From Eledone cirrhosa (Eukaryota): a stretch of DNA of 64,000 nt. This document shows positions 50,802 to 64,000 of this stretch, piece after piece; position 1 is the stretch's first letter, and each line of letters opens with the position of its first letter. A program made the position numbers and the translations under genes. The notes beneath the pieces were generated by a model that had not been told where the DNA came from, did no database searches, and saw only the letters and a program-made list of their open reading frames with translations. Location of the stretch: contig OZ024742.1 in assembly GCA_964016885.1 (NCBI GenBank), positions 50,592,001 to 50,656,000 on the forward strand, given 5' to 3'.

Positions 50802-50837
50802 CTTTTGAAAAGCAGAAGAACTGCGAAAGGGGTAAAG
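50802..50837 (+). ncRNA. Minimal hammerhead ribozyme, U3-A8 core variant (loop III mutated to gggg)
   Basis: ctt TTGAAAA gcag-aagaa-ctgc GAAA gggg TA aag. Confidence 0.55.
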
Positions 50838-59400: not shown

Positions 59401-59880
59401 GATGTGATGGGCAGGGTGATCCACTGGCACCTGTGCAAAGTAAACAATCTACCACACTCTGAGAAATGGTATGAGCATAGGCCAGAGGCGGTGCTGGAGA
59501 ACAGTCAGGTGAAGGTGCTGTGGGATTTTAGGATACAGACGGACAAAAAACTGGAACACAATAGACCTGACCTGGTGGTTGTGGACAAAGAAAAAAGATC
59601 GTGCCTGATTGTGGATGTGGCCTGCCCGTTCGACACGAGAGTGCAAGAGAAGGAGAGGGAGAAAATTAACCGATACCAGGACCTAAAGTGAGAGGTGAAA
59701 AGGATTTGGAACTGCCATGAAGTCAAAGTGATCCCGATTGTCATAGGCGCACTGGGGACTATCTCCAAAAGTTTCCAGGGATGGTTAAAGAAAATCGGCC
59801 CCTTCACGCTTTTTGGAACGCTTCAAAAGGCATGCTTGCTTGGAACAGCAAGAACCCTCCGATACGTCCTGAATATCTGA
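56488..59880 (+). pseudogene. R4/Dong-type non-LTR ORF: RT + CCHC finger + restriction-like endonuclease, interrupted by nonsense codons
   Basis: N-terminal VMQCY...GYRRRM..IW; EPWWKKRL; NWK.PGPDGV; YRPITCL; EQKGC; [12 protein letters not shown]; [10 protein letters not shown]; LFMDDLKL; YKYLG; CRIC...ETVAHIVSEC; RHD; RPDLVVVD...IVDVACP...K..RY. ORFs at 56749, 57820, 59227 and 59695 share one frame. The start is approximate. Confidence 0.95.
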
Positions 59881-59963
59881 GGCTGCAGGTAGTGGCTTGA
59901 TATTCAATCCAACGGACTTTCCAGTTAACCAACATCAATGACTGAGATTCAAGGAATAACAAC

Positions 59964-60000
<37 letters not shown>

Positions 60001-60001
<1 letters not shown>

Positions 60002-60625
60002 GGCATGACAGAGCTGCACAATACATACATTGGATAATGTGTAAGCATTTTGACCTGCCCCATCAAAAGAATTGGTGGGAGCATCAACCACCACCCATAC
60101 TTGAAAAGGATCACATCTCAATCTTGTGGAACTTTAGCATCCAAACAGACCGAAAAATAGATGCAAATAGACCTGATATAATATTGAAGGACTTTCAAAA
60201 GAGGGTATGCCTGATAATTGATATGGCTGTTCCAATAGACAATAATGTATCTATAAAAGCATTTGAAAAATTGAGCAAGTATAAAGACCTGGAGATAGAA
60301 ATTGGAAAAATGTGGAAATTGAGAACTAAAACAATACCAGTGGTTGTAGGCGCTCTGGGAATGATACCTAAGGGGTCTAATGATTACACATCGCAAATCC
60401 CAGGAAAGCCGCGTATAGGAGAAATACAAAAGATAGTACAAATGGGAACTGCCCATATACTAAGGAAGATTCTGTCAATAAAATTACATCACAAGTCTAA
60501 ACACTAAAGATGCATGTGTGAATATTTATGTTCTTTCTTGAACATGGCGGACCTTGTTGTCTCTTGAGGTCACTGGTTGTGACTTGGTGATAACTCGTAT
60601 GAACATAAAGCAAGATAAATGCAAC
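60001..60625 (+). mobile_element. 3' fragment of a second, divergent R4/Dong-type family
   Basis: RHD...W..C...WWEH.P...ILWNFSIQTD.KI.ANRPDIIL....CLIIDMAVP...K..KYKDL...IPVVVGALG; different 3' UTR; (TAA)n on both sides. Confidence 0.92.
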
Positions 60626-60667
<42 letters not shown>

Positions 60668-60672
<5 letters not shown>

Positions 60673-60922
60673 CAGGAACTACCATGAAGTCAAAGTGGTC
60701 CCGATTGTCATAGGCGCACTAGGTACTATCTCAAGGAGTTTCCAGAGATGATTAAAGAAGATTAGTCCAGCCCCGCTTTTTGGAACACTTCAAAAGGCAT
60801 GCTTGTTGAGAACAGCAAGAACCCTCCGATACGTCCTGAATATCTGAGGCTACAGGTAACATCTTGATATTCATTTCAACAAACTTTCCAGTTAAATAAC
60901 ATCAATGACTGAGACTCAAAGA
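60668..60922 (+). mobile_element. R4/Dong-type LINE short 3' fragment
   Basis: Near-identical to 54385-54636, including the 5' junction. Confidence 0.9.
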
Positions 60923-60943
60923 ACAATAATACTAATAATAATA

Positions 60944-61035
<92 letters not shown>

Positions 61036-61272
61036 ATATTTAGAAACACACAGATACATGCGGACACACACATATATACATGAATGCATCCGCACCCAAC
61101 TGTGAGTTAAGGGTGCCAACTTCACCGATGTTGCTCAATGAATGACTGGGACAGACCAATTCAGTTGAACCAGACTGAACCAGTATCAGAGTTAAAAATA
61201 CATTATGAAGAGAGAAGAAACATTTAGATATAATTAGTAATATAATGTATCATACCTAAACTGCTCTTAAAT

Positions 61273-61362
61273 TCCTCGACTACGTAGTTTCGTGGCATAA
61301 ACAAAAACAATATATCATAAAGATATAGAGTCCTTGCGAGGTCTGCCGACTTATCAAGAGGA
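61273..61362 (-). ncRNA. Type I hammerhead ribozyme, U3-A8 core variant
   Basis: tcctc TTGATAA gt-c-ggca...tgcc-ac GAAA ctacgtag TC gagga. Confidence 0.8.
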
Positions 61363-61867
61363 TACCTCATTTTACTAGTCTCAAGAACGCGTCTACACGA
61401 CGTGAGAAAGAATCCCAAAATGCGGAGGGGGAGATAGTCACGCGATATAACGGTCGAGAAACAGAGCTAAGCCTCTTATAACCCCGAAGAAAATACCACG
61501 GAGGCGGAGGGGGTATTTATATCGAGGCCGCAGAAGAGGTGGTGAAGAAGGCGAGAAGTATGAGTAATGGAAGCTTTCCAGCTGTCCCCACACTTCAAAG
61601 ATTGCTCGACCAGAGGGAGTTATTAACAATATATTTAGAAACACACATATACATGCGGACACACACATATATACATGAATGCATCCGCACCCAACTGTGA
61701 GTTAAGGGTGCCAACTTCACCGATGTTGCTCAATGAATGACTGGGACAGACCAATTCATTTGAACCAGACTGAACCAGTATCAGAGTTAAAAATACATTA
61801 TGAAGAGAGAAGAAACATTTAGATATAATTAGTAATAAAATGTATCATACCTAAACTGCTCCTAAAT

Positions 61868-61957
61868 TCCTCGACTACGTAGTTTCGTGGCATAAACAAA
61901 AACAATATATCATAAAGATATAGAGTCCTTGCGAGGTCTGCCTACTTATCAAGAGGA
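61868..61957 (-). ncRNA. Type I hammerhead ribozyme, U3-A8 core variant
   Basis: As 61273-61362; the only change is the bulged stem II base (c to a). Confidence 0.8.
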
Positions 61958-62427
61958 TACCTCATTTTACTAGTCTCAAGAACGCGTCTACACGACGTGA
62001 GAAAGAATCCCAAAAGGCGGAGGGGGAGATAGTCACGCGATATAACGGTCGAGAAACAGAGCTAAGCCTCGTAGTCGATGAATTTAGGAGCAGTTTAGGT
62101 ATGATACATTTTATTACTAATTATATCTAAATGTTTCTTCTCTCTTCATAATGTATTTTTAACTCTGATACTGGTTCAGTCTGGTTCAACTGAATTGGTC
62201 TGTCCCAGTCATTCATTGAGCAACATCGGTGAAGTTGGCACCCTTAACTCACAGTTGGGTGCGGATGCATTCATGTATATATGTGTGTGTCCGCATGTAT
62301 CTGTGTGTTTCTAAATATATTGTTAATAACTCCCTCTGGTCGAGCAATCTTTGAAGTGTGGGGACAGCTGGAAAGCTTCCATTACTCATACTTCTCGCCT
62401 TCTTCACCACCTCTTCTGCGGCCTCGA

Positions 62428-62435
62428 TATAAATA
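62428..62435 (+). promoter_or_regulatory. Candidate TATA box in the 595-nt unit
   Basis: TATAAATA in a GC-rich context ~155 nt upstream of the HHR on the same strand; present in the minus-strand copy too. Motif only. Confidence 0.3.
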
Positions 62436-62586
62436 CCCCCTCCGCCTCCGTGGTATTTTCTTCGGGGTTATAAGAGTCTTAGCTCTGTTTCTCGACCGTT
62501 ATATCGCGTGACTATCTCCCCCTCCGCCTTTTGGGATTCTTTCTCACGTCGTGTAGACGCGTTCTTGAGACTAGTAAAATGAGGTA

Positions 62587-62676
62587 TCCTCTTGATAAGT
62601 CGGCAGACCTCGCAAGGACTCTATATCTTTATGATATATTGTTTTTGTTTATGCCACGAAACTACGTAGTCGAGGA
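62587..62676 (+). ncRNA. Type I hammerhead ribozyme, U3-A8 core variant
   Basis: tcctc 62587-62591, TTGATAA 62592-62598, GAAA 62658-62661, palindrome ACTACGTAGT, GUC ending at 62671, gagga 62672-62676. Confidence 0.8.
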
Positions 62677-62745
62677 ATTTAGGAGCAGTTCAGGTATAAT
62701 ACATTTTTTTACTAATTATATATAAATGTTTCTTCTCTCTTCATA

Positions 62746-62789
<44 letters not shown>

Positions 62790-62793
<4 letters not shown>

Positions 62794-63780
62794 CATTTAA
62801 ATGTTTATAAATTTCCTGTTGGTTGGTTCCAAAACCGGACGGTTGTTCATATATTGTCAAAGTTCTTCCGTCACTCATTCTGTGACCTCTTCAGTGACTG
62901 GGGATTCTTTTCTTTGTATTGTGCCTTCCCCTTGTTCTGTCCTACGCCATCTTGTTTTTGTGTGTTGTGTGCTTAGTTTGTGTATGTGTTACATCTGGGT
63001 GTCTGTATGTGTGTTTATATGTTTATTTATTTGTTTATGTATATGTTAGTAGTTAGTTGTTTGTTCTATGTGTGTGTGTTTTCATTTTGTGATGTTGCTA
63101 TTCCATTCATGTTTTCTATTTAATTCGGTTGGAGTTCATTTATGTTTATTGCCTCTGTGATTTGTCTAAACATTGCGTCTTTTCTGTGTGTAGATTCTAT
63201 TTTATTTCTATGTTCTCTAATTTGCCCTTATGTTCTATTTTAGCATGTTGGTGGAGTACTGATGAATCTTTTCTATCTTGGAGTTTTCGCCAGTGTTCAT
63301 TTAATTGTTCTACTATGATACGAGCTGTCTCACCTATGTACATTATATTCTTATCGTTACATTGTCCCTCAGTACATCATATGCTATATACTATGTTTCT
63401 AGGTTTACAGTTAATATGGGGGCTTATTTTACAGATTATGCATTTCCTATCTATACAGGGAGGTCTTTCAAAAGGGTATATATTACTTATAAGTGTTTTT
63501 ATGGAGGTACGTGCTTTTTCGACTATCTTAATATTTAGTTTAAGTTTATGTAGGGCCCTTCTAAATTTGTAAGCTAGTTCACATCTAGGGGTTGTATTGA
63601 TGAACATTACACTCTGGTATTTATTGTTATAATACCATGAGTTTATTTTATTAATCTTATTTCTAGTTCTTTCTATTCCAAAATTTGCTCCTATACAAGG
63701 CGCAGGTCCCATCTGTATCATGTTTTACCATTTTTTCCCATTTGGTTCTGGCTCCTCTATATACTCTGATTTTATCTCTC
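62790..63780 (-). mobile_element. 5'-truncated Penelope-like element (linker + GIY-YIG relic) with degenerate HHR at 62856-62898
   Basis: SVMFINTTP..EL...IKIVEK.RTSIK.L....PF...PC....C.IC......NCK.RNIVYSI*C....C....MYIGETAR.....NEH...SVLHQH; in the 3' region gtca CTGAAGA g-gtcac...gtgac-g GAAG aactt tgac. Confidence 0.82.
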
Positions 63781-64000
63781 TGGTTGTAATCGGATGAAGT
63801 GTTGTATGTGTCTCTCCAGTTCTTTGTGGTTGCACATGCAGGACGCGTTCCTCATCATCCTTACTAAATCCGCAATCAGGATGTTGATTTTGGTGTGATC
63901 CGAAACAGCTGAGTTTCGGTAGATCAGGTATTTGGAAGTCATGGGTTTGGCATAATGGAAATGTGGGATTTGTTTTTTTATTATTAATTTTTCTACTTTA

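Follow-up and report, generated by a model that had tools for sequence, protein, structure and literature searches.

A dispersed 595-nt hammerhead repeat of Eledone cirrhosa, probably a non-autonomous Penelope-like element copied from edited RNA

Structure of the locus

The stretch of DNA considered here (the window) comprises 64,000 nt of the genome of Eledone cirrhosa (GCA_964016885.1, contig OZ024742.1:50,592,001-50,656,000, forward strand), and window coordinates are used throughout. Positions 61036-62751 are occupied by an insertion that consists of two opposed arms of a 595-nt unit with a hammerhead ribozyme motif, with (TA)n on each side (Table 1). This insertion is a member of a young, abundant and dispersed family of non-coding repeats. 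We consider it probable that the family is a retrozyme, i.e., a non-autonomous Penelope-like element (PLE), whose edited RNA, probably a circle, is copied from both ends of the target site.

A first-pass annotation of the window had described a unit repeated about 1.7 times on the minus and about 1.1 times on the plus strand within (TA)n. This agrees with the arms as delimited here (1.74 and 1.15 units), which are 98-99% alike and have a period of 595. The absence of an open reading frame (ORF) was also borne out: in a tripled unit, ATG frames reach 76 codons at most. All units of the insertion share two A>G changes (unit positions 107 and 342), and the whole unit of the plus arm has a private G>T in stem I. 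This unit had been proposed as the self-cleaved monomer (62077-62671). However, the plus arm contains a single whole hammerhead, so that it is not releasable by two cuts at this locus; judging from the motif positions, the releasable monomer could instead be minus 61872-61278.

A 22-nt stretch that resembles a TATA box plus a GC box and does not vary between old and young subfamilies might act as an internal promoter of the unit. However, unit position 355 (window 62431), within the TATA-like box, is fixed for A>G in the abundant 591-nt subfamily. Either this subfamily is transcribed in another way, or the box does not serve as promoter.

Table 1. Features of the insertion and its target in the window.
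Feature	Position	Strand	Remarks
(TA)n target run, left	60949..61035		sequence
Left arm, ribozyme strand minus	61036..62070	-	1.74 units; unit positions 398-595, 1-595, 1-242
Left arm, whole unit	61872-61278	-	flanked by partial 398-595; then 242 nt to long end site (~+245)
Right arm, ribozyme strand plus	62070..62751	+	1.15 units; unit positions 589-595, 1-595, 1-80
Right arm, whole unit	62077-62671	+	7 nt before; 80 nt after, to short end site (+80)
165-nt "tail" between both fixed end sites	62157..62321	+	unit positions 81-245; old subfamily with same sites
TATA-like and GC-box-like stretch, possible internal promoter	62426..62447	+	22 nt invariant, old versus young subfamilies
Type I hammerhead motif	62587..62676	+	U3-A8 core, long stem II, palindromic stem III; predicted cut after 62671
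Type I hammerhead motif	61868..61957	-	predicted cut between 61873 and 61872; C>A at stem II bulge
Type I hammerhead motif	61273..61362	-	predicted cut between 61278 and 61277
(TA)n target run, right	62752..62789		sequence

The dispersed family

A 19-mer spanning the predicted cut has 7,681 exact matches in the 3.0-Gb genome and its reversed control has none, which shows that the motif is not due to chance. Exact junctions of (TA)n with the end site 80 nt past the cut (+80) number 1,946 genome-wide; the 650 junctions counted for the second site (+245) represent a single junction form only and are not comparable with this number. Our sample comprises 149 insertions at 146 loci out of the ~7,700 copies, i.e., 39 best matches, 47 taken in position order from the first 100 listed matches, and 60 from the end-junction lists. 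Eight loci were left out before counting (five overlaps, two replaced by longer stretches, and a neighbour stretch). One insertion (L044) was counted twice because its locus is duplicated; here a two-armed insertion plus flank (L044 2473-6328) is duplicated with a spacing of 2,554 nt.

The insertions have a median length of 1,020 nt (longest 4,577) and contain up to five whole units head to tail per arm. Nearly all whole units between successive motifs (124 out of 125) measure 585-607 nt, and no indel was found in the 355 joints between units that were read. Three young subfamilies (595, 591, and 593 nt) and one older subfamily, 80% identical, were distinguished. A search for relatives consisting of the tail only returned nothing but family copies.

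The hammerhead motif

The three type I hammerhead motifs of the insertion, two on the minus and one on the plus strand, have the form TCCTC-TTGATAA-stem II-GAAA-CTACGTAG-TC-GAGGA. As the first-pass annotation had noticed, their cores and stem II regions differ only by a C>A at the stem II bulge of one copy (- 61957-61868). In the family, U3-A8 is present in 321 of the 323 parsed cores and C3-G8 in none. The majority units of the old and young subfamilies are the same at 44 out of 44 positions of the hammerhead core and stems, as against 432 out of 551 elsewhere, although 19 of these 44 positions served to find the first old copy and the other 25 did not. Stems I and III and the base of stem II are invariant across copies, and the changes in outer stem II are one-sided only. 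With invariant stems and no C3-G8 core there is no covariation to score, and the covariation check proposed earlier is therefore uninformative. Such strict conservation needs a function. The hammerheads are predicted to cut themselves, probably as dimers; the stem III palindrome would form a self-duplex with a second copy at -12.9 kcal/mol, and the active fold is predicted to lie at most 1.1 kcal/mol above the local minimum. A search against Rfam gave no hammerhead match and three weak microRNA matches that we judged to be chance, and a search for a relative of this hammerhead with a short stem II gave no matches. The isolated motif folds no better than shuffled sequences (z -0.82).

Fixed ends and arm geometry

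On the ribozyme strand, the 3' ends of the arms fall on two fixed sites, 80 and ~245 nt beyond the predicted cut, and the 5' ends are scattered. One-armed insertions (n = 66) end at +80 in 38 cases, at +245 in 27, and elsewhere in one. A TA run abuts 221 of 229 3' ends, and the old subfamily uses both same sites. All 80 simple two-armed insertions have their 3' ends outward, and 73 of them combine one end of each kind (+80/+245); the pair +80/+80 occurs once, +245/+245 never, and there are six other pairs, among them two at 74 and 83. In the loci picked by position this one-of-each rule holds for 22 out of 25 insertions, and for 22 out of 22 when both ends were typed (p = 2e-7). The one-of-each pairing is the footprint of the Penelope "tail", and its simplest reading is twin priming, a name that comes from work on L1, with each target end using one site.

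The inner joints between arms show modest homology, with a mean of 1.6 nt in the 37 clean joints out of 64; the other 27 have mismatches or extra letters nearby. In 11 out of 147 insertions (L022, L053, L070, L073, and others) the target flank is duplicated in inverted orientation across the insertion, compared to 1.4% in a mismatched control, possibly by a template switch onto target DNA. Direct target duplications were found in 7 out of 147 insertions.

Variation among units

For the loci picked by position, the differences among units amount to 0.43% within the same arm, 0.47% between opposite arms, and 3.8% between loci; 65 of the 66 variants fixed in one arm are present in both arms. Nine of the 149 insertions do not belong to the three young subfamilies and are left out of the mutation counts. 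The variants common to all units of an insertion comprise, on the ribozyme strand, 103 A>G, 21 T>C, 28 G>A, and 20 C>T, in a unit that contains 131 A and 215 T. The unit-private variants comprise 23 A>G, 49 T>C, 46 G>A, and 45 C>T, with A>G versus T>C as the base content predicts. Since these DNA-level changes have no A>G bias, the excess of shared A>G most likely arose in RNA. It persists in the shared variants seen in one insertion only (18 A>G versus 7 T>C, p = 7e-4) and in the distinct events polarised with the old subfamily as outgroup (34 A>G, 11 T>C, 5 G>A, 6 C>T), which were counted site-by-subfamily, 38 of 106 events not being polarisable. Selection for wobble pairs was rejected as the cause of A>G, as C>T would be equally tolerated yet is not raised.

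Where at least three units cover a site, A>G is present in all units 27 times, in some twice, and in one four times; its presence in all units indicates that one edited unit was copied repeatedly. Among the 12 variants recurring in different subfamilies, ten are A>G, one insertion (L075) has six A>G in all of its 7-8 units, and another (L071) has three within 16 nt. Shared A>G hot spots include unit positions 107, 342, 397, 539, and 549. Edited sites have a 5'U or a 3'G, the site preference of ADAR, in 17 out of 21 cases as opposed to 53 out of 112 (p = 0.008).

Template and mechanism

Copy number, arm geometry, fixed ends, the one-of-each rule, uniformity within insertions, and strand-biased A>G are direct observations. 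That the 595-nt unit spreads by PLE-driven RNA retrotransposition we regard as very likely. A locus with more than one unit would be transcribed on the ribozyme strand, the hammerheads would cut the transcript, probably as dimers, and the monomer would be ligated. The A>G scars suggest that ADAR then edits this highly paired RNA. The fixed ends suggest that a PLE protein makes a nick in each strand of (TA)n and that its reverse transcriptase (RT) starts at +80 or at ~+245, one site per DNA end. Each enzyme would go round the same RNA for 0.1 to 5 turns, and the two cDNA ends would be joined at short homologies, giving opposed arms with outward 3' ends, or one arm only if just one side extends.

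A circular monomer is the likely usual template, and its existence is supported indirectly by the shared A>G changes and by a stable circular fold predicted for the sense strand only. Compared to shuffled sequences (15 shuffles each), the circular unit has z-scores of -8.1 and -6.4 on the ribozyme strand and of -1.6 and -2.7 on the other strand. Differences between old and young units for the most part preserve the predicted pairs (30 one-sided, 5 two-sided, 1 broken), in a structure that was derived from the same sequences. The seamless joints and the lack of a pile-up of 5' ends at the cut are easier to reconcile with a circle than with jumping on a monomer that has been cut. Contigs of four runs carry the family, and one of them, 621 nt long, goes back by 595 nt; this was not used as evidence for a circle, because tandem DNA gives the same result. 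The most specific version, in which each insertion is the concatemeric cDNA of one ADAR-edited, hammerhead-ligated 595-nt circle that was copied at once from two fixed starts by the two active sites of a dimeric Neptune PLE, seems to us evenly balanced between true and false.

Several observations weigh against a ligated circle made by hammerhead cleavage, and most of them would suit an alternative that we consider unlikely: an uncleaved linear multimeric transcript from uniform source arrays serves as the PLE's template without any need for a circle, and cleavage by the hammerhead is rare or belongs to another stage. The Anolis PLE used uncleaved RNA in vitro and hammerhead mutants were without effect on insertion (PMC11167929, Frangieh et al. 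2024), and eight out of nine Xenopus retrozyme dimers remained uncleaved in vitro (10.64898/2026.07.22.740005, Li, Clavereau and Pollet 2026). In the predicted circle the active stem I has a probability of 0.0 and a competing hairpin one of 0.88; this conserved hairpin could protect the circle, or could mean poor cleavage. Private A>G changes fall on shared hot spots in 13 out of 23 cases (p = 4e-4), so that some templates probably were multimers or were edited between passes. Precise joints and the absence of run-off at the cut fit a multimer equally well. However, independent editing of the units in a multimer predicts A>G in one or some units, contrary to the distribution given above (all 27, some 2, one 4), and the shared A>G unique to one insertion (18 versus 7) would need one edited unit to be copied into all at some generation. 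The strict conservation of the hammerhead also needs a function. Two further reservations concern the editing itself: events on related copies are not fully independent, and pairing is not significantly commoner among edited As than among the other As (15 out of 21 versus 69 out of 112).

It is improbable that the template is a linear monomer cut at both hammerheads on which the enzyme jumps from the 5' end to the 3' end, or that the second arm is a fold-back of the first cDNA, although both would yield the same uniform units. Fold-back is formally possible in 47 of 72 two-armed insertions, inner ends lie at most 30 nt apart in 13 of 72, above chance (p = 0.048), and three insertions have perfectly palindromic inner joints. 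In 25 of 72 two-armed insertions, however, neither arm is contained in the other, so that fold-back copying cannot explain all of them, even if it may explain some; jumping is disfavoured by the 355 joints without indel and by the 5' ends, of which only 4 out of 234 lie within 1 nt of the cut. Least probable is that the unit is simply the pseudo-LTR (pLTR, LTR denoting long terminal repeat) of an autonomous PLE and the copies its 5'-truncated fragments, a possibility raised by the first-pass annotation: its ends, tail, inversion, and type of hammerhead are those of PLEs, and pLTRs and retrozymes are reported to be akin in Xenopus (10.64898/2026.07.22.740005), but none of the 149 sampled insertions reaches an ORF, the 5' flanks of 67 one-armed insertions have no common extension, arms hold up to five whole head-to-tail units, and 84 loci at matches to PLE RT or GIY-YIG show no homology to the unit except for nested unit copies.

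If copying of single edited circles is indeed the route, the genome would be a fossil record of single RNA circles and its copies would prove circular-RNA retrotransposition, with RNA editing feeding heritable change into a mobile element. The editing scars would serve as molecular barcodes by which every unit in either arm of an insertion is linked to a single RNA unit, and the inverted arms and tails of PLEs would be explained as twin priming at two fixed sites.

Relation to known elements

The 595-nt family is a new family of a known kind, most likely a non-LTR retrozyme and in effect a non-autonomous PLE. Like retrozymes, its insertions have head-to-tail non-coding units with a type I motif in each, and no LTR-retrotransposon body or ORF. 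As in non-autonomous PLEs, their 3' ends are fixed and show a tail on one side, their 5' ends vary, and partial tandem and inverted arrangements occur in microsatellite targets. A unit flanking an ORF with RT and GIY-YIG, as for a pLTR of an autonomous PLE, was found in 0 out of 149 insertions. The first-pass proposal of a retrozyme mobilised by PLEs is supported by the genome-wide copy structure and a co-resident candidate driver (see below).

The class, the U3-A8 core, and the unit size are already in print. That PLE enzymes reverse-transcribe around retrozyme circles is a proposal dating back to 2014 (PMC4209133, Cervera and de la Pena 2014; PMC7229834, Cervera and de la Pena 2020). The U3-A8 core had been called non-canonical, and it is indeed present, but it is not novel, as such hammerheads were described in Schistosoma PLEs with about 1,300 hits (PMC4209133). 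Nor is the unit long for a retrozyme, as had been supposed, since units of 51-972 bp, and their kinship with pLTRs, have been reported (10.64898/2026.07.22.740005). Our literature search, which did not cover preprint supplements, Dfam, or Repbase, turned up neither the 595-nt family nor the one-of-each rule, and no retrozyme copies described as carrying editing scars.

According to PMC7229834 and 10.64898/2026.07.22.740005, metazoan non-LTR retrozymes share with our family non-coding head-to-tail units with a type I hammerhead each, low GC, a predicted highly paired circle, co-resident PLEs, the range of unit lengths, and the proposed route, a circle copied by a PLE RT. The 595-nt unit differs in having a PLE-type hammerhead (U3-A8, long stem II, palindromic stem III) instead of a canonical one, dispersed one- and two-armed insertions with two fixed ends, and genomic A>G scars, none of which is mentioned for retrozymes in the text consulted.

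PLEs form partial tandems in which an arm is inverted and one end has a tail of 30-40 bp, and they prefer microsatellites or (TA)n (PMC8557442, Craig et al. 2021). The tail corresponds to the sequence that separates two internal start sites of the RT, and the Anolis PLE protein, a predicted dimer, cuts and extends both strands (PMC11167929). Endonuclease-bearing (EN+) PLEs thus resemble the 595-nt family in their partial tandems, inverted 5'-truncated arm, (TA)n target, two-site tail, and hammerhead upstream of the ends. Unlike them, the unit has no ORF and its tail measures 165 nt. Its start sites terminate in TA-like letters, in agreement with the target, whereas those of the Anolis PLE have no homology to the DNA that is cut, and it follows a strict one-site-per-arm rule, whereas the in vitro work saw no strand difference (PMC11167929). 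Hammerheads of the Schistosoma Cercyon PLEs have the same U3-A8 core, short stem I, bulge close to where stem II begins, and palindromic stem III suited to dimer cleavage (PMC4209133); that of the 595-nt family differs in residing in a self-repeating non-coding unit, in its 60-nt stem II, and in being nearly invariant across thousands of copies.

Candidate driver and neighbouring elements

A search for GIY-YIG revealed a young PLE (L269, G000:C1:145869000-145877500, minus) with an open 938-aa RT and GIY-YIG frame between two terminal repeats, the copies of whose family are mostly 96-98% alike. The label "Neptune-type" that we give it rests on a cysteine-rich linker and is provisional. Its hammerhead has U3-A8 and a palindromic stem III and occurs in 11,539 exact copies; the family ends at +82 and +149, 67 nt apart, and opposed arms have one of each in the loci examined. 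The motif TTTCT(W1-3)ATA lies exactly at both ends of this family and at both ends of the old unit and also marks the ends of the 595-nt unit, the shared end motifs being 10 nt; the two other families of PLEs that were checked lack it. The unit and the L269 family have in common the end motifs, the U3-A8 core, and a similar spacing (+80 and +82). Against a link speaks the lack of alignable homology beyond these short motifs, and an alignment of the first 80 nt after the cut is no better than shuffles. Without longer homology the link is likely only, and we lean slightly towards the L269 family as the driver of the 595-nt unit. An intact candidate enzyme with matching end motifs in the same genome opens a route to in vitro testing with defined parts. 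Many copies of the L269 family are tiny two-armed insertions, and pieces occur in the window near 50805 (plus) and 49800 (minus).

The broken PLE directly beside the insertion (62800-64000, minus, continuing into L031) is old and consists of RT and GIY-YIG pieces with many stops; Pfam was blank on its four pieces. We rejected it as a partner because the hammerhead that it carries is C3-G8, its end motifs are different, and it shows no homology to the unit. It belongs to a very large family with ends ~158 and 218 nt past the cut. A second Neptune-like family was rejected as driver, being older (best copies at most 90%) and without homology to the unit. Two further PLE families are represented by L271 (G000:C1:83811000-83820500, plus), L272, L273, L276, and L282; one has a 1,096-aa open frame, and the other has a C3-G8 hammerhead and opposed arms that end at two sites, ~+129 and +178. 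Upstream of the insertion, at 59500-60930 on the plus strand, lie three fragments resembling the 3' ends of restriction-endonuclease-type LINEs (long interspersed nuclear elements), which may be R4/Dong-like and each of which ends in (TAA)n.
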